This document shows, piece by piece, positions 15,088 through 41,901 of a stretch of DNA of 64,000 bases. The stretch is taken from positions 80,893 to 144,892 of IMG/VR virus record IMGVR_UViG_3300045988_111815, one strand, 5' to 3'. Position 1 is the stretch's first letter, and every line of letters starts with the position of its first letter. The DNA is from a virus. The notes beneath the pieces are model-generated. The model saw nothing but the letters and a program-made list of their open reading frames with translations, had not been told where the DNA came from and ran no database searches. The position numbers and the translations under genes are program-made.

Positions 15088-16335
15088 CATACTCCCATCG
15101 CTAAAGCAAACGGGATTCTTGGATACAAACGCAAGAAACCCCGATATTACTATCGTTGGAATTACTCTTACTCTCCAATTCGGAAATGCCCTTCCGAAGT
15201 ATATTACGGGCTGCAAGAATATCACGGTCGTTTACCGCTCCGCACGCCGGGCATACCCACGTGCGGTCGCGTAACGACAGTCCTTTATTAATGCAGCCAC
15301 ATTCGCAAGTTTTGGAAGAAGGATACCATTTATTAATCTTGTGTATCGTTACTCCATACTTTGAAGCAACATACGTAAGTTTATCAATAAAAGAAGAATG
15401 ACTGAGATCAGAAACTTTCTTTCCCCACAAACGTTTCATTCCTTCAATGTTTAGATCTTCAATAAAAATATAATCATACTGTTTGCATAACTGGTGTGCT
15501 AATCCCCATTGAAAATCTGATCGAAGATCGTTTATTTTACGATACGTTTGTTGGAGTTCAAACAGTCTCCTTCTTCTATTGTTGGATCCTTTCTTTGCAT
15601 TAGAAATCCGTTTATTTAGTTTTCTAATCTTGTTTTGATATTGTTTAAAGAATAATGGAGAATCGATTTTGCTACCATCGCTTTTAGTTAGATAAGTTTT
15701 CAGCCCAAAATCCAATCCGATAGATGCACCATCATGTGTCTTTCTATAAGAGTTTGAATGATTATGATCTGTAACTATAATCAAACTAAAACGGGAACAG
15801 GTTTCTCTAACTATTCTAATTTGTTTAACATTACCTTCGTAGACTCTACTGTATGAAAATCTAAATCGTTTCTTTCCTTTGTTAATTGTTAGACAATTCC
15901 CATTCAGGGTAAACCCTCCTTGTTTGAAAACAAAAGAGTTAAAACAATCAGCTCTTTTGAACTTAGGAGGTCGTTTAGCCAACTTCTTAAAGAAACGATT
16001 ATAAGATTCATCAAGACGTTCAAGTATTTCTTGTGTTGTTTGAGAATGAAGAAGATTTCTTTTAATTCTTTTGGTAAAATGTTTCTTCATTTTACCAATT
16101 GATATATATTTCCTAAACAGTTTGTAGTATCTACGTTGTAGAGCTAACGCATGATTCCATACAAAACAACATTCACGAAGCATTTTGTCAAGATACTTCG
16201 TTTTCTTGGAATGGTATATGTTGTATTTGTATGAAATCATTTTTATCTGTAATTTTGATTCAAAATTAATCAAACCAATTCATCCACCTTCTAAAGTATG
16301 GTGGTTTTGTTGGTTAAATTATCATAATTTCTATT
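15040..16335 (-). mobile_element. IS200/IS605-family TnpB-only (IS1341-like) insertion element; boundaries approximate
   Basis: Solitary tnpB on the strand opposite the flanking operon. No Y1 (HUH) TnpA is adjacent. The 74-nt upstream spacer contains hairpin CCACC…GGTGG (16284-16304). The 3' coding end contains a perfect palindrome TTCGGAA…TTCCGAA. Exact left/right ends could not be determined by eye. Confidence 0.5.
15101..16273 (-). CDS. tnpB: TnpB (OrfB) RNA-guided endonuclease-type transposon protein, IS605 family (390 aa)
   Basis: RuvC-I: IGLDFGLKTYLT. RuvC-II: IFIEDLNIEGM. Zn finger: CECGC…CPACG. RuvC-III: DRDILAARNI. N-terminal region is OrfB-like (…CFVWNHALALQRRYY…). Confidence 0.85.
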   Translation of the reverse strand: MINFESKLQIKMISYKYNIYHSKKTKYLDKMLRECCFVWNHALALQRRYYKLFRKYISIGKMKKHFTKRIKRNLLHSQTTQEILERLDESYNRFFKKLAKRPPKFKRADCFNSFVFKQGGFTLNGNCLTINKGKKRFRFSYSRVYEGNVKQIRIVRETCSRFSLIIVTDHNHSNSYRKTHDGASIGLDFGLKTYLTKSDGSKIDSPLFFKQYQNKIRKLNKRISNAKKGSNNRRRRLFELQQTYRKINDLRSDFQWGLAHQLCKQYDYIFIEDLNIEGMKRLWGKKVSDLSHSSFIDKLTYVASKYGVTIHKINKWYPSSKTCECGCINKGLSLRDRTWVCPACGAVNDRDILAARNILRKGISELESKSNSNDSNIGVSCVCIQESRLL

Positions 16336-34369: not shown

Positions 34370-35389
34370 TCATCGTTTTATCTTTTTAGACGGATCCCAA
34401 TCCGAAGAGAAAGGGCATTCGTTTTTGTTATGTAATCCAAAGTCACAATAATAACACAGTGCTGACGGGCAGGGTAGCTTGTTTTGCGAAACAGGCTGGC
34501 TTAGGGTGGCACGCCGCTTGCTATACCTGGCTCCTTCTGCTCCCTGGATGTACGCTTGAAATGATTTTACACTATTATCTTCAAAATCATACATTTTAGA
34601 CAAAGTGTCATTTAGCATCTCTATAGATTTTGTTTTACGTTCCTCATCTACCTTAACCTTTTGGTACTGCCTGGTCCTGGTAAAGAAATAGATGTTCATA
34701 TCTGGTAGAACCCCACCATATCTTCTATAGATGTAAAATGAATATATAGGATGCTGTAAATTTGTTTCCAACTTCTTAGAATCAAAAACCTTATTACCTG
34801 ATTTCCAATCTATGACATAATGGTGAACTACGTTCTTGCTTTTTATAGCCAGATGAAGGTCTACCGATCCTACTATGTACACATGAGTATGAATTACTCC
34901 ATTTATGTTAACAGGCTTAGGAAGACGGTACGGCAGCACAAAATCTTCTTCGACTCCAACTATAGCGCTGTGTCTGATAAGTTTCTCGCAGGGATTAAGA
35001 TCACTATCAGCTATCATAAACCTATTGCCGTCTTTTTTGAACAGATCCACAATCCAAGCAAGAAGCTCCCCGGATTGCTTCATGGCTATCATCATATTTT
35101 CCGGTGATTGCCAAGGTATGTCTTCTTGGTAAGCATAGTAACTTATAGCTTCCCCCAGGTCTTTTCCAGAAGGCTGTCTTCCGTTCTTAAAGAAGTATTC
35201 CAGTGTCTTATGGATAACCGTACCATAAGACGTAGCTTCTTGTTTTTCCGTAGACCTTTTGCCCTCTACGTAAGTCTTATACCATTTCATTGGACAAGTA
35301 AGAAACGTGTCTATCTGGGAATAAGATATGGCAAGACGTTTCACGCCATTAAACTCCTTATATAGCAAATGCGTTTCCGGGACCATCAT
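34370..35389 (-). CDS. Cas4/RecB-like PD-(D/E)XK nuclease with Cys cluster (339 aa)
   Basis: SYSQIDTFLTCPMKWY N-terminal motif. VDLH…VIDWKSG (D…DxK). C-terminal CxxC…C cysteines consistent with a Cas4-type Fe-S site. Confidence 0.7.
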   Translation of the reverse strand: MMVPETHLLYKEFNGVKRLAISYSQIDTFLTCPMKWYKTYVEGKRSTEKQEATSYGTVIHKTLEYFFKNGRQPSGKDLGEAISYYAYQEDIPWQSPENMMIAMKQSGELLAWIVDLFKKDGNRFMIADSDLNPCEKLIRHSAIVGVEEDFVLPYRLPKPVNINGVIHTHVYIVGSVDLHLAIKSKNVVHHYVIDWKSGNKVFDSKKLETNLQHPIYSFYIYRRYGGVLPDMNIYFFTRTRQYQKVKVDEERKTKSIEMLNDTLSKMYDFEDNSVKSFQAYIQGAEGARYSKRRATLSQPVSQNKLPCPSALCYYCDFGLHNKNECPFSSDWDPSKKIKR

Positions 35390-35929: not shown

Positions 35930-37630
35930 TTATTTTTTGTCATCTCCTTTTAACTTCTTTAAAGTATCTGCAATCGGAAGCTGATCAATGACTCCCAATG
36001 CCGGAGCGACGGTCTTAACAACATTGTTAAGGAAATTACCGGTACTGTTCTGACCGCCGTCAAATACCGTGATATTTCCGAGGTTAATGTGCTCGAACGC
36101 CTTAACCTGTTCTCCAGCAATTTCTTTCCACTGATTAACCATCTTGTACTGGATGGCTATCTGAGGATTGGATTCTGCTGCTTCCACCATAGCCTTAAAT
36201 CCGTCGGCTTCTGCCATCAACGACTTTTTCTTACCTTCGGCTTCTGCCTCCAGCTTCATCTGAATAGCTTTTGCTTCCGCTTCTGCTTTTGCCAAATGTG
36301 CTGCTGCTTCGGCATCAGCCCGACGTTTGATTTTCTCAGCTTCAGCATCAGCTTGCAACATAGCCTCCTGCTTCTGAATTTCAGCCGGCACAATCTTTTC
36401 AGCTTTAAGCGCAGCTTGAACCTTCTTAGCTTTAGCTTCTTCCACTTCTTTATCAGCAAGCTCTTTTGCCGTTTTCACAGCCGCTTCCGATTTAACTCTC
36501 TCTTCTCCGGCTTTCTTTTCTGATTGAGCTTTGATAACCTGTAGCTCTGATTCTGATACAGCAACCTCTTTCTGGGCATTGTTATAACCCACAGATGCGT
36601 TTTTCTCAGCTTCAGCTTTCTTGATCTGAGCTTCGGAATCTTGGATTGCTATAGCTGCCTGTTTATCAGCTTCAGCTTTATTCTTCCCGACTTCTTCCAT
36701 TCTTTCGGCTTCAGCTTTGTTTACTTCAAGTTCTGCCTTAGATTTTGCGATCGCTGATTCCTTATCAGCCAAAGTCTTTGCAATAACCGCAGCCCTATCT
36801 CTATCGGCTTGAGCTACACCGATCTGTTTTTCTTTATCGGTTAAAGCCAAAGCTACTTCTTTTTCTTTCTTTGTTTCAGCTACTACCGTTTCCTTTTCTT
36901 TTTCAGTATAGGCAATTTGAATCTCTTGCTCTTTTTGGGTATTAGCTACAGCCGTTTCTTTTTCCTTTTGCTGTACAGCAATCTTAATAGCACCCAGCTT
37001 TTCCTGTTCTTCGATATTAGCCTGTGCTTCGTTCAGGGCCTTACTTTCAGCTTCTTTGCCAAGATTCATGATATAGCCGGCTTCGTCTCTGATGTCACTG
37101 ATGTTGATATTTAGGAGGTAAAGACCTAACTTATTAAGTTCGTTATCAATGTTTTTTCTTGCCTTATCCAAAAACTCATCCCTGTCAGAATTAAGTTTTT
37201 CAATCGTCATTTCAGCAATGATCAAACGCATTTGGCCATAAACAATATCCGTAATAAGATTTTCAGTAGATTCAGTATCCATCCCCAAAAGCCTTTCTGC
37301 TGCATTCTGCATAATTTCAGGATTTGTGCTGATTGCTACTGTAATAGTAGTAGGTACATCCACTCTGATATTTTGAGACGACAAAGCACCGGTGAGCCTA
37401 CAATCTATTTGCATAGGCTCCATAGACAAAATATCATAGCTTTGAATAATAGGCAAGACGAATGCCGCTCCACCATGATATAATTTCGCCGATTTCTTTT
37501 CCCCACCTGTCTTACCATAAACGACCAAGACTTGATTAGGCTTACATCTACGATACCTTGATAAGACTCCGATGATTGTCAAAATAATCACTACAGCTAA
37601 AATAGCTGACACGTACATGATTGTTGTCAT
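35930..37630 (-). CDS. Flotillin-like SPFH/band-7 protein (FloT/YuaG-like, 566 aa)
   Basis: N-terminal TM helix. VLVVYGKTGG…GGAAFVLPIIQ and DIRDEAGYIMNLG match flotillin signatures. Long Ala/Glu/Lys-rich coiled-coil with EA-type repeats. C-terminal ITVFDGG. Confidence 0.85.
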   Translation of the reverse strand: MTTIMYVSAILAVVIILTIIGVLSRYRRCKPNQVLVVYGKTGGEKKSAKLYHGGAAFVLPIIQSYDILSMEPMQIDCRLTGALSSQNIRVDVPTTITVAISTNPEIMQNAAERLLGMDTESTENLITDIVYGQMRLIIAEMTIEKLNSDRDEFLDKARKNIDNELNKLGLYLLNINISDIRDEAGYIMNLGKEAESKALNEAQANIEEQEKLGAIKIAVQQKEKETAVANTQKEQEIQIAYTEKEKETVVAETKKEKEVALALTDKEKQIGVAQADRDRAAVIAKTLADKESAIAKSKAELEVNKAEAERMEEVGKNKAEADKQAAIAIQDSEAQIKKAEAEKNASVGYNNAQKEVAVSESELQVIKAQSEKKAGEERVKSEAAVKTAKELADKEVEEAKAKKVQAALKAEKIVPAEIQKQEAMLQADAEAEKIKRRADAEAAAHLAKAEAEAKAIQMKLEAEAEGKKKSLMAEADGFKAMVEAAESNPQIAIQYKMVNQWKEIAGEQVKAFEHINLGNITVFDGGQNSTGNFLNNVVKTVAPALGVIDQLPIADTLKKLKGDDKK

Positions 37631-37661
37631 AACTTTTAAAATTTAATTGTTGATAAAAAAA

Positions 37662-38360
37662 TTAGATACTTAATTCTCCTTCTTCGTATTTTATATTCAC
37701 CTTGTCACCGTTTTTGTAATTTTTTCCAGACAAGCACCTCACTCTCATCTGTTCCTGTCTTCCATTTTTCGAAATATTTACCATATAATGATTCTTCCCT
37801 GATCTAAATACTATCTCCACTTCTCTGCCATTTAAATCTTCCGGACATTCGTACACCATTTCTTGCTTTAACTTAAGAAGTAACTTATATACGTAAAACA
37901 AAACGATAAAGAAAAACGACCCTATTACGACCCCTATTAAATGGGAACCCGAAAAGTATGTGGTCCAGCTATATCCAAGAATAAAATGTGTTATGCCTTT
38001 GAATGATATGATGTCCGACAAAGACATGCTTAAATCAGAAGCGTTATCAATGTCAATATCCGTATCCAGATCAGATCCTAATATCGACAATAAAAACTGT
38101 ATAACAAAAGCAAATGACGCTATTAAAGCCATGCATAAAATTATATCATTTCCCATATCCTTGATGGATTCTGTATCATAATCAATAATAACGATATTGA
38201 ATTTTTGTTCCACCATCGCATCAAGCTCAATTCGATCAATAGAATCTAATCCAAGTTCTTTAAACGACACATCTTCTTCATGAACTATATCCATTTCCGA
38301 ATTAAGAAACTGAGTAATAATTATATCCTCTATTATCTTTCTAATTCTTACTTTTTCCAT
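37662..38360 (-). CDS. NfeD-like membrane protein with N-terminal acyl-carrier-protein-like domain (232 aa)
   Basis: Residues ~1-70 align by eye to ACP (SFKELGLDSIDRIELDAMVEQKFNIVI matches [24 protein letters not shown], including the DSL/DSI serine). These are followed by 2-3 TM helices and a C-terminal beta-rich OB-like segment (…GREVEIVFRSGKNHYMVNI…) typical of short NfeD/YuaF partners of flotillin. Confidence 0.55.
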   Translation of the reverse strand: MEKVRIRKIIEDIIITQFLNSEMDIVHEEDVSFKELGLDSIDRIELDAMVEQKFNIVIIDYDTESIKDMGNDIILCMALIASFAFVIQFLLSILGSDLDTDIDIDNASDLSMSLSDIISFKGITHFILGYSWTTYFSGSHLIGVVIGSFFFIVLFYVYKLLLKLKQEMVYECPEDLNGREVEIVFRSGKNHYMVNISKNGRQEQMRVRCLSGKNYKNGDKVNIKYEEGELSI

Positions 38361-39063: not shown

Positions 39064-39270
39064 CTAATCAGCTTTAATGAAAATAACATCTCTATTATCC
39101 TCCCTCTCCGCGTGACTACACGGACCTGCAATCACATGCACTGCCCCGCATGTAAAGTAATTGAATATACATCCTTCACATCCTGCATTTGGCGCCGTAG
39201 GTTCCACACATTTTAATCTCACAAGTCCGGCATCAAACACTTCTCCTACTTTAAATTCCTTCTTTTCCAT
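39064..39270 (-). CDS. Small Cys-rich protein, CEGCIF-motif family member 1 (68 aa)
   Basis: …CVEPTAPNAGCEGCIFNYFTCG… Paralogous to 62142..62390 and 63584..63844. Confidence 0.4.
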   Translation of the reverse strand: MEKKEFKVGEVFDAGLVRLKCVEPTAPNAGCEGCIFNYFTCGAVHVIAGPCSHAEREDNRDVIFIKAD

Positions 39271-39901: not shown

Positions 39902-41035
39902 TTAATATACTGACTGTTCTTCCTTTACCTCTTGTTCTTGATCTTGATTGTTCGTAACGTCTTCCACAGTATAGAGCTTGGGCGGCGTCGGCGGCTGGTT
40001 GGGGTTCACGAACTTCGTCCCTCCCTCCCCGTACATCCATCCATGCCCCGGCAGGATCTCTGGGTGGATTGTATTAGTAAGCTCTTCCATACTAACTTGC
40101 CTTACCTTCAGTATATGATGAAACACCAGTCCGGCTGTCCTGAATGATGTTTTGTTTTCAGTTTTAAACCGGTCAAGAGTCTGATACCAGTCTTTCCCAA
40201 ATATCATATACTTGTCCAGCCCGTATCTGCGAGGATTATGCAAACCTATCATTAACGTACATAGTTGCCCCAGCGTATCAGACTGATAAAAGTCAGAAAG
40301 ACGGGGAGGCTGCTCTTGAGGGCTTTTTATCCTTCCTTCTATCTCTCTGTTGAATTGGGATATGATGAGGAAAAATATGTTTTTATATACTAATTTAGCC
40401 TCGTTCATAACCGCCACCAAATCATCTATAGCCGACTTAGGATCCAATCCCATTCTTTTTATCAAAGCAATATGATCGACTTTAAATATTATAAGACGTT
40501 TGTCTTTATGCTTAGTAGCTATATGATATACAGCCGCCTCAAACTCTTTTACCGTACACGGAGCGTCGATGTATATTATATTATTTCTGATTTCACCTTG
40601 AAGGATTTCAAACATCCTCATCTCTTCTACTGTATTAGAATCTTGCCTTCTTAATATTTCAGGAGCCCGTTTTTTCATATCCTGACTCATTCTGCGAAGA
40701 AGAAGATCTTGAGGATTCATTTCGAACTCGCAATTGACAAGAAAATAATCTTCTGCTTGTGGGTTGATCATCGGATTCATCACATTTTCCAATATCTTTT
40801 GGGCCACATACGATTTACCCACAGATGGCCGAGCCCCTATGGCAATAGCATGCTGAGGGAAAATACCTCCAAGCAAAGCCTCATCAATATAATCGTATCC
40901 GGTTTTAGCGGGGATAAGCTCTCCCCGCCTGTATTTTAAGATATTCTCATACGCCTCTTCCATAACCTGTTTGGAGGTTTTGAATATCCTTCTTATATCT
41001 ATCCTATTTGCTATCTCCTCGTGCATTTTTGTCAC
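39902..41035 (-). CDS. DnaB-like replicative helicase, RecA-fold C-terminal domain (377 aa)
   Basis: IDEALLGGIFPQHAIAIGARPSVGKS (Walker A in DnaB context). Walker B-like IIFKVDHIAL. Confidence 0.75.
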   Translation of the reverse strand: MTKMHEEIANRIDIRRIFKTSKQVMEEAYENILKYRRGELIPAKTGYDYIDEALLGGIFPQHAIAIGARPSVGKSYVAQKILENVMNPMINPQAEDYFLVNCEFEMNPQDLLLRRMSQDMKKRAPEILRRQDSNTVEEMRMFEILQGEIRNNIIYIDAPCTVKEFEAAVYHIATKHKDKRLIIFKVDHIALIKRMGLDPKSAIDDLVAVMNEAKLVYKNIFFLIISQFNREIEGRIKSPQEQPPRLSDFYQSDTLGQLCTLMIGLHNPRRYGLDKYMIFGKDWYQTLDRFKTENKTSFRTAGLVFHHILKVRQVSMEELTNTIHPEILPGHGWMYGEGGTKFVNPNQPPTPPKLYTVEDVTNNQDQEQEVKEEQSVY

Positions 41036-41334: not shown

Positions 41335-41901
41335 CTATTTCAACCTGCCGTAGCTCATATCGGGATCACACCAGACATACCCGTCTTTCTCATCATGGAG
41401 ATACTCAGGGCATCCTCTGCATGCGCTACTGCCTGACACTATTTGATTGTTCTTATTAGGGCACTTATCTCCAGGTTTATGCCATTCTATTCTCGAACCT
41501 GATCGTTCTTTGTTTACATGACAGAACTGAAAGACTTTTCCCATCGTCTTCTCGCCAAACATACCTATATGTGTGTACTCTTCCGGTATAGCGAGAAATT
41601 CAGATAAATCTTTATACATCCTTTCCCGTTCCTCTGGCGTAGACCATAGTCTATCAAGTTCGGCATGGACTCTTATCTTAAGAGACCTCAGTGATGGCCC
41701 CGCAAGCCGGCCTTTAGCTTTTCCCTTATTCGGCCCTGATTCATGAACACCGACATAAGCGTTGCATGGTTTACACATCATAACCATCCCTAAGCCTTTT
41801 CTGCTATATATTTTATCGGCATTGACCAACTCGGTTTCTCTTCCGCAATAAGGGCAAATTTCGCCTCTTAAAATCCGTTGTTGCCGCACATTGAGTTCCA
41901 T
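41335..41901 (-). CDS. Zinc-finger protein (188 aa)
   Basis: CPYCG…CKPCNAYVGVH plus C-terminal CRGCPEY. Resembles a phage zinc-finger family; the family assignment is from memory only. Confidence 0.45.
   Translation of the reverse strand: MELNVRQQRILRGEICPYCGRETELVNADKIYSRKGLGMVMMCKPCNAYVGVHESGPNKGKAKGRLAGPSLRSLKIRVHAELDRLWSTPEERERMYKDLSEFLAIPEEYTHIGMFGEKTMGKVFQFCHVNKERSGSRIEWHKPGDKCPNKNNQIVSGSSACRGCPEYLHDEKDGYVWCDPDMSYGRLK

Follow-up and report, generated by a model that had tools for sequence, protein, structure and literature searches.

The Locus and Its Flotillin

Within a 64,000-nucleotide (nt) stretch of viral DNA, positions 80,893 to 144,892 of IMG/VR virus record IMGVR_UViG_3300045988_111815 (hereafter the window), a gene for a flotillin of 566 amino acids (aa) is preceded by an open reading frame (ORF) of 232 aa, in which the remnant of an acyl carrier protein (ACP) is joined to an NfeD-like membrane protein, and is followed by a small tail-anchored membrane ORF of 57 aa (Table 1). 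All window genes from approximately 28 kb onward lie on the minus strand, and the order of transcription is a DnaB-like helicase, three small or unknown genes, a 237-aa gene, the 232-aa ORF, flotillin, the 57-aa ORF, a 119-aa ORF and a PD-(D/E)XK nuclease. A previous reading of this DNA, made from its letters only (the sequence-only reading), had described a two-gene module, namely a flotillin with an NfeD-type partner 31 nt downstream on the same strand, placed between a Cas4-like nuclease and DnaB genes. The flanks, the gap and the same-strand neighbor are as described. The orientation had to be reversed, since both genes are on the minus strand and the 232-aa ORF is consequently upstream (5') of flotillin, and the module comprises three genes instead of two, or probably four if the 57-aa ORF is counted. 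In the spacer between the pair, no coding-strand terminator and no promoter signal above chance were found by a sigma-70 promoter and terminator scan, the models of which do not extend to Bacteroidota promoters.

Table 1. Features of the module and its flanks, in order of transcription (window coordinates)
Feature	Coordinates	Strand	Basis or remark
DnaB-like helicase	39902..41035	-	Flank of the module
Conserved gene, 237 aa	38348..39061	-	13-nt overlap with the start of the ACP gene / 232-aa ORF
232-aa ORF, fusion as found in the window	37662..38360	-	ORF listing; alignments to csAssE-Sib, L006 and L033
ACP gene remnant, fusion codons 1-68	38157..38360	-	Pfam PP-binding, TIGR00517, phrog_5934
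37-nt deletion junction	38162..38163 (38163/38162)	-	Between imperfect direct repeats AAAGATATG and AAGGATATG
Native NfeD-like partner gene, 164 aa	37662..38156	-	Retained internal ATG at 38156-38154
Spacer between partner and flotillin, 31 nt, AT-rich	37631..37661	-	Coding-strand sequence TTTTTTTATCAACAATTAAATTTTAAAAGTT
Flotillin gene, 566 aa	35930..37630	-	Pfam Band_7 and Flot
Tail-anchored small membrane ORF, 57 aa	35770..35943	-	14-nt overlap with the stop end of the flotillin gene
PD-(D/E)XK nuclease	34370..35389	-	Other flank of the module

The flotillin has an N-terminal anchor, an SPFH/Band_7 region (residues 30-211), a coiled coil rich in glutamate, alanine and lysine (approximately 191-480) and a Flot region (450-559). 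Its N-terminus is hydrophobic (MTTIMYVSAILAVVIILTIIGVLSRYRR), with a peak 19-residue hydropathy of 2.8 over residues 4-22 followed by RYRRCK; the motifs GGAAFVLP and DIRDEAGYIMNLG are found at residues 53 and 179, and E, A, K and Q make up 63% of residues 191-480, where P and G are few. Both expected Pfam families are matched above their gathering scores, i.e., Band_7 (PF01145; 2.5e-25, 90 bits vs. a cutoff of 23.6) and Flot (PF15975; 1.5e-9, 38.5 bits vs. 27), and the full-length flotillin-type protein with transmembrane helix, signatures and coiled coil that had been proposed from the letters is thereby borne out. Its closest relatives in the PDB are human flotillin-2 (5e-23) and flotillin-1 (3e-18), both from the native cage complex 9BQ2, with QmcA at 3.6e-4, which places it nearer to flotillins than to SPFH proteins of the stomatin or HflK/C type. 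It shares 24% identity over its full length with YqiK from Escherichia coli (E = 6e-19). Since the NCBIfam FloT equivalog model (NF058507) is matched at 146.9 bits, below its cutoff of 700, the protein is assigned to the flotillin family and not taken as a FloT orthologue or equivalog. PHROGs holds no family for the flotillin or for the NfeD-like part of the 232-aa ORF.

The NfeD-Like Partner

In the native partner of 164 aa, the helices are hydrophobic, a loop is acidic (DxDxDxD), the motif SFKGxxHF is conserved and the C-terminal part forms a β-barrel. In an AlphaFold2 (AF2) model built on a 70-sequence alignment (predicted local distance difference test, pLDDT, 89.5), helices span residues 2-25, 52-69 and 72-95, together with the acidic loop and the C-terminal β-barrel; by these helices and by the hydropathy peaks, the membrane helices precede the OB domain, which is the NfeD-type architecture claimed for the partner by the sequence-only reading. 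A deep HMMER search gives a family of about 200 representatives, mostly of 155-180 aa.

Profile matching is less clear-cut. The Pfam NfeD family (PF01957), which had been expected for this ORF, does not match the window protein, the PP-binding family discussed below being its only Pfam hit; two of 70 family members match PF01957, with a best value of 6e-5, and the positive control YbbJ is matched at 3.5e-12. Likewise, neither YqiJ_N (PF21001) nor YqiJ_OB (PF07290) is matched by the window protein or by the 70 family members (13 Pfam families matched overall), both being matched by the control YqiJ from E. coli. Comparison of the partner profile with those of known proteins brings the C-terminal region into register with YuaF (E = 0.053, PDB-wide), YqiJ (0.019) and YbbJ (0.001, probability 21%), all of which are weak matches, and a Foldseek search of the PDB with the partner model does not separate NfeD from generic OB folds. 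The protein adjoins flotillin in the window, in all of 81 phage loci (defined below) and in 79 of 80 Bacteroidales loci. The name NfeD-like is used here mainly for this last reason, the Bacteroidales homologue coming immediately before flotillin in 79 of 80 genomes. The name thus refers to architecture, modeled fold and operon partnership, and not to demonstrated membership of the Pfam NfeD family.

An Acyl Carrier Protein Remnant Fused by a 37-nt Deletion

Residues 1-68 of the 232-aa ORF are a truncated ACP and residues 69-232 are the membrane protein with its C-terminal OB fold; the earlier view of the whole ORF as an NfeD-type partner therefore holds in substance for residues 69-232, the ACP part and the deletion that fused it having gone unseen. 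The ACP assignment is carried by Pfam PP-binding (PF00550; residues 23-58, 6.7e-5, 23.5 bits vs. a cutoff of 20.8), TIGR00517 (1.9e-6) and the ACP family phrog_5934, and PF00550 is precomputed on most relatives. As the housekeeping AcpP equivalog, TIGR00517 is reached at 27.6 bits only, below the cutoff of 70.45, and the window carrier protein is best classified as a divergent ACP, not as AcpP. The phosphopantetheine-site serine is Ser40 in LGLDSID (codon 38243..38241). An intact 83-aa allele of the same gene matches 62 solved ACPs with this serine aligned, the motif aligning to LGADSLD, and LGLDS(I/L/V)D is kept in all alleles retaining the region except an 86-aa allele with LELDS in the IMG/VR loci L050 and L055. 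In these two loci, the distinct allele (…ELELDSLDKIELVVEVEKEFGILIYDNEMDNIKSIKDM…) is found about 780 nt upstream of the start of flotillins that are 98% identical to that of the window, which suggests a recombinational exchange of the ACP gene separate from the genes around it. Regarding the source of the ACP, only near-identical phage alleles were found among the 120 matches listed by a homologue search. No phosphopantetheinyl transferase or acyl-transfer enzyme is annotated in the related phage csAssE-Sib, so that the host AcpS would be needed and Ser40 would probably be modified by it.

In csAssE-Sib, two genes are annotated in the same region, one for an acyl carrier protein of 83 aa and one for a transmembrane protein of 164 aa, with an 11-nt overlap. 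Alignment to csAssE-Sib and to the related loci L006 and L033 reveals that the window lacks 37 nt, namely AAAGATATGACTGATCTTGTTTACAAAATAATAACAG by comparison with L006 and L033, of which the ACP allele is otherwise identical and which match the window over the displayed flanks of the deletion save for one mismatch in L033. The deletion costs the ACP its helix IV (TDLVYKIITEGYGK) and its stop codon, and it brings the reading frame into that of the downstream gene. With its flanking imperfect direct repeats (Table 1), it can be envisioned as a microhomology-mediated event that would have generated the fusion of ACP remnant and NfeD-like protein while keeping the native internal start of the partner.

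The frequency of this allele was estimated on 81 related phage loci, i.e., csAssE-Sib and 80 IMG/VR loci. All 81 carry a separate 164-aa gene, 73 carry an intact ACP of 82-86 aa with the complete four-helix bundle that the window lacks, and none carries the fusion. Nevertheless, because the identical 232-aa protein is found on 10 contigs from at least two different ENA assemblies, the fusion is a real minority allele and an assembly error at the junction is unlikely; the matching intact ACP allele is found on at least 1000 contigs. In the AF2 model of the fusion, which relies on an alignment that is shallow over the ACP part and gives only moderate confidence there, the ACP part has a pLDDT of 58-78 and a continuous helix (63-93) runs into the first transmembrane helix.

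The Phage and the Rarity of Its Module

The nearest GenBank genome is that of phage csAssE-Sib (CrAssE-Sib), a complete genome of 151 kb from the human gut with 92.6% nucleotide identity; the genomes are about 150 kb in size. Among classified phages, the major capsid protein of this relative matches only the Cellulophaga phages phi4:1 and phi17:2 (34% identity; genus Lightbulbvirus), and a label of canonical Crassvirales was rejected on this basis. Phage phi17:2 and gut genomes of about 150 kb form the Epsilon group of crAss-like phages, which accounts for 13-18% of crAss-like reads (Yutin 2021). By its sequence relationships the phage is placed in this group, and its earlier designation as crAss-like is thus appropriate in the broad sense.

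The gene order of the module, with the same phage replication-gene flanks, recurs in 164 IMG/VR contigs of up to 155 kb, in csAssE-Sib and in a divergent second lineage, and in independent ENA and Logan assemblies. The homologues sought in relatives therefore do co-occur, and the view that the region is neither host contamination nor a chimeric join is upheld. Phage-borne flotillins had also been supposed to be rare, and so they are: a tblastn search with the flotillin matched eight of 50,697 GenBank phage records, including three large genomes (csAssE-Sib, Vibrio phage KIT04 and faecal phage MT835492), the others being short fragments. A scan of IMG/VR seeded with three aligned flotillins yielded nothing beyond the close relatives already found. 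The paper describing CrAssE-Sib (PMC11054128) does not mention flotillin, acyl carrier protein, SPFH, NfeD or membrane, that of Yutin 2021 does not mention flotillin or acyl carrier protein, and no paper pairing "crAss-like" with "flotillin" was found in the library searched. The finding is not categorically new, since GenBank already annotates the flotillin and the ACP and SPFH genes occur in other phages; no paper discussing the annotated genes was found, however.

Conservation, Selection and Deletion Variants

The second lineage, for which ENA and Logan contigs are the source (its partner protein gave no match in an IMG/VR scan), displays the same order of ACP, partner, flotillin and small ORF. 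Its representative L082 is 83, 61, and 35% identical to the window lineage in flotillin, partner and ACP, respectively, and its ACP keeps DDLGLDSLD as well as the overlap with the partner gene. Within the window lineage, the ratio of non-synonymous to synonymous substitutions (dN/dS) is 0.037 for flotillin, 0.062 for the NfeD-like gene and 0.37 for the ACP; the ratio was taken within the lineage, synonymous sites being saturated between lineages. Such values indicate strong purifying selection on flotillin and the NfeD-like gene, as expected for functional, constrained proteins. The pair is also found in a more distant relative, L084, where the ACP is absent. In seven of the 81 loci (L001-L081), flotillin is 489, 499, 562, 568, 577 or 597 aa in length rather than 566 aa, presumably owing to indels in the repetitive coiled coil.

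In metagenome assemblies, in-frame internal deletions of the module are also found (P0008, P0020, P0028, P0029, P0044 and P0023), one of which removes the third helix. In P0008 (an 82.5-kb contig), P0020 and P0028, all from the first lineage, the partner is fused to the C-terminus of flotillin, whereas P0029 (L259-L261) is a lineage-2 deletion variant that recurs across several sequencing runs, the ACP upstream of it being intact. In P0044, the ACP is fused to the OB domain. Variants without most of flotillin and the OB domain are thus found on an 82.5-kb contig and in several runs, and the locus appears to be deletion-prone.

Bacteroidales Homologues and Origin of the Pair

Homologues of the partner are encoded on the chromosomes of Bacteroides, Phocaeicola, Parabacteroides and Prevotella, where databases name them only "hypothetical" or "transmembrane" protein. 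They were searched in host genomes with a tight five-sequence partner alignment, the 70-sequence alignment being too divergent, and among 80 host loci flotillin comes directly after the partner in 79; a range of 4 kb around the pair was free of ACP matches in all 80. The Bacteroidales operon, e.g., that of Bacteroides thetaiotaomicron, B. faecis and Parabacteroides goldsteinii, shares with the phage the same two genes, their order and a short spacer, the flotillin being about 65% identical over its full length (63-67%, median 65.7% by BLASTP), and the partner resembles that of the phage in length, acidic DxDxD loop, SFKGxxHF motif and C-terminal OB barrel. Unlike the phage module, it has no detectable upstream ACP and no conserved small downstream ORF, and the phage partner has diverged from it to about 36% identity (30-41%, median 36.5%). 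The claim that the phage pair mirrors a bacterial operon is strengthened by the corrected orientation, since partner-first is the bacterial order, both in these Bacteroidales loci and in yqiJ-yqiK from E. coli.

In neighbor-joining trees of either gene, the phage sequences of both lineages fall into a single clade with a Bacteroidales clade as its sister, far from E. coli YqiJK and from other phage flotillins. The simplest reading of these relationships is that the pair was co-captured once, fairly long ago, from a Bacteroidota host, the ACP having joined it in the phage. The nfeD-like gene and the flotillin gene would thus have been taken up as one unit by an ancestral gut Epsilon phage; the unit is preceded by a phage-specific ACP gene, with its stop overlapping the nfeD-like start, and followed by the small tail-anchored ORF. 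Some Phocaeicola/Bacteroidaceae genomes have two paralogous nfeD-like/flotillin operons (L239-L245 vs. L189/L190); the flotillin of the second is also 566 aa in length, and L242, from the paralogue group, shares about 73% identity with the main copy of B. faecis.

Comparison With Known Systems

Outside the Bacteroidales, the closest parallels are yqiJ-yqiK from E. coli and yuaF-yuaG (nfeD2-floT) from Bacillus subtilis, where the gene for a short membrane protein with a C-terminal OB fold likewise comes immediately before that for a flotillin (about 510-570 aa) with N-terminal anchor, SPFH domain and EA-rich coiled coil. They differ from the phage pair in sequence, with 24% identity to YqiK, marginal partner matches and failure of the YqiJ_N, YqiJ_OB, NfeD and FloT models. 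QmcA-YbbJ from E. coli (PDB 8Z5G) and FloA-NfeD from Staphylococcus aureus are likewise made up of an SPFH protein and a short NfeD protein encoded in one operon. However, QmcA and FloA are short, stomatin-like SPFH proteins whereas the phage protein is of the flotillin type, and in E. coli qmcA comes before ybbJ, the reverse of the phage order.

Among phages, Vibrio phage KIT04, the Vi01-like Kuttervirus with their Band 7 proteins and MT835492 resemble the window phage as large lytic phages with an SPFH-family gene among early or replication genes. Their SPFH proteins share 26-28% identity with the window flotillin and are found on separate branches of the tree, as independent acquisitions; that of the Vi01-like phages is also shorter. 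Neither an OB-fold NfeD-like partner nor an adjacent ACP was found at the loci of KIT04, the Vi01-like phages or MT835492: KIT04 has only an 82-aa membrane protein upstream and MT835492 has no partner. No function is reported for these SPFH proteins in the papers found. In Salmonella phage PhiSH19 (L257, record 74140..84925), genes for SPFH/Band 7, a "superinfection exclusion protein", ACP and DUF3268 are found on one strand within 11 kb. The ACP is 5.4 kb from the Band 7 gene on the same strand, which is co-occurrence and not a module, and it may be by coincidence that SPFH, ACP and DUF3268 occur together both in this large phage and in the unrelated window phage.

Proposed Role and Alternatives

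The reading for which the evidence speaks best, and which is considered reasonably probable, is that the module is a host-derived membrane-scaffold operon of Epsilon crAss-like gut phages, adding to or replacing the microdomains of the host. Expressed from the leftward block of replication and early genes, the flotillin would, by analogy with solved assemblies such as the human flotillin cage (9BQ2) and SPFH-NfeD complexes, be anchored in the inner membrane via its N-terminal helix, and its SPFH and coiled-coil regions could oligomerize to give a dome-shaped cage on the cytoplasmic side. Inserted in the same membrane, the NfeD-like protein may bind flotillin via its OB domain and promote this assembly. 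Of the related systems, QmcA-YbbJ builds its cage from 26 heterodimers (Tan 2024, cited in PMC13086221) and FloA-NfeD stabilizes unfolded membrane proteins without ATP (PMC11222466). In a similar manner, the phage scaffold could supplement, replace or mix with host flotillin microdomains, and the likely benefit would be to keep membrane proteins stable and the membrane organized during infection, i.e., an accessory role in fitness.

Several points weigh against this proposal or parts of it. Because natural deletion variants circulate, the module is dispensable for viability and constitutes an accessory gene set, which is not required. The trees that place the origin of the pair are neighbor-joining trees without bootstrap. 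What links the ACP to the pair is only that the genes stay adjacent and overlap, as unrelated phage genes commonly do, and the ACP is less constrained, being disrupted in eight of 81 loci. Finally, the topology of the partner can be read in two ways, as three spans with the N-terminus outside (N-out) or as two spans with an interfacial helix and the N-terminus inside (N-in), both of which fit the sequence. The three-helix AF2 model implies N-out; hydropathy gives only two strongly hydrophobic segments, and the acidic loop and a K-rich stretch after the last helix would fit the two-span N-in topology with a cytoplasmic ACP remnant. The choice between N-in and N-out decides whether the fused remnant could be cytoplasmic at all.

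As to the ACP, it may be just a neighbor that serves another purpose, for instance in lipid or secondary metabolism or by binding a host protein, the unit being the nfeD-like/flotillin pair and the window fusion a tolerated loss of ACP. This explanation, which is judged somewhat less likely than not, draws on the lack of an ACP match beside the pair in the host loci and on its absence from L084, on a dN/dS of 0.37 compared with 0.04-0.06 for the pair, on its disruption in other loci and its truncation in the window, on overlapping gene ends being common in phage genomes, and on the moderate confidence of the ACP part of the fusion model. However, the order of ACP, partner and flotillin and the overlap are kept across two lineages although the ACPs are only 35% identical, with the serine motif in both; the lineage-2 deletion variants retain an intact ACP, and ACP-partner fusions have arisen at least twice (window allele and P0044). 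At the other extreme, the ACP would be a true third subunit of the scaffold, with holo- or acyl-ACP docking on the NfeD-like protein or on the flotillin cage, in the way that acyl-ACP is a structural or regulatory subunit of mitochondrial complexes; this is regarded as improbable. If true, the status of the lipid carrier or local acyl transfer would be coupled to flotillin microdomains in an undescribed ACP-NfeD-flotillin module with which a dominant gut phage remodels the inner membrane of Bacteroides, and the recurrent ACP::NfeD fusions would be "Rosetta-stone" evidence of interaction.

Regarding the benefit, the scaffold could instead serve membrane-level superinfection exclusion or another anti-phage function, altering the inner membrane so that competitors cannot inject DNA or assemble. 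The sequence-only reading had named such exclusion as a possible role, along with anchoring of replication and an effect on envelope stress. The accessory character of the module, its deletion variants and the high allelic diversity around the ACP and the small ORF would be in line with such a role, and in the Vi01-like PhiSH19 the SPFH/Band 7 gene adjoins the "superinfection exclusion protein" gene, albeit by annotation and in an unrelated phage. Against this, neither the flotillin nor the 232-aa ORF matches a defense model in PADLOC-DB, the genes are found within the replication block and not in a recognizable moron or lysogeny island, and purifying selection at about 65% identity to the host fits a retained scaffold role equally well or better; exclusion is thus thought unlikely. 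A takeover of the host scaffold is held to be just as doubtful. Here, the phage flotillin would co-assemble with that of the host and poison or re-program its microdomains, e.g., by releasing or sequestering host membrane proteins. The identity of about 65-70% to host flotillins over the full length, coiled coil and Flot domain included, makes mixed oligomers plausible, and the stronger divergence of the partner (about 36%) would be expected with a shifted partner specificity; yet takeover differs from the scaffold proposal only in the direction of the effect, which sequence cannot separate. As for a host fragment or a chimeric assembly join, the clear Bacteroidales origin of the genes is outweighed by the recurrence of their order and replication flanks in the IMG/VR contigs, csAssE-Sib and the ENA and Logan assemblies, by smooth GC content and strand skew across the module, and by identities of only about 65% and 36% to any host copy, so that this explanation can practically be discarded.

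Significance

A sizeable part of the human gut virome is accounted for by Epsilon crAss-like phages; none of those from the gut is in culture, and only a minority of their genes has an assigned function. A conserved, strongly selected membrane module of Bacteroidales origin is a handle on manipulation of the host envelope and a pointer to likely hosts. On the bacterial side, an unannotated Bacteroidales family of "hypothetical" or "transmembrane" proteins is recognized as the NfeD-like partner of Bacteroides flotillin, which should be useful for work on microdomains of gut commensals. The function of bacterial flotillin is still debated, and a phage flotillin with circulating deletion variants is a natural experiment on the use of the scaffold. 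The SPFH-NfeD operon that this abundant gut phage has from its hosts, and to which an ACP is attached without explanation, is real and no artefact, and the unexpected ACP linkage is a testable lead.

Neighboring Genes and Other Observations

The small tail-anchored ORF, which is the probable fourth gene of the cluster, is conserved as 50 aa in csAssE-Sib and as 52 aa in L082, and is found in length-variable forms of 50, 34 or 57 aa among the 81 loci. The window copy has an internal 7-aa duplication (INIFLIC/INIFLI) by comparison with csAssE-Sib, and no family match was found for it in Pfam or PHROGs. On the other side of the module, the 237-aa gene is also present in the divergent lineage (L082 4831-5544), and its N-terminus looks winged-helix-like by eye. 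It was considered as a candidate Sfp-type phosphopantetheinyl transferase and left unassigned, having no Pfam or PHROG match and only a weak match to LmuC in PADLOC (E = 0.0095).

Next to it, a small cysteine-rich ORF (39064..39270, minus strand) is 68 aa in length in the window and 65 aa in csAssE-Sib (L001 12082..12279); its ends are conserved while the Cys-rich middle is wholly different between the two phages, and it looks like a local hypervariable cassette. The replication block of the window also encodes a DUF3268 zinc-ribbon protein (41335..41901). Between about 26000 and 28000, GC and AT skew flip sign, where the plus-strand structural genes give way to the minus-strand replication and early genes. 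Among the former, a TnpB/IS605-type transposase ORF of 390 aa (15101..16273; phrog_506, 5e-90) lies in the opposite direction, on the minus strand, and csAssE-Sib also has two genes of the TnpB family.

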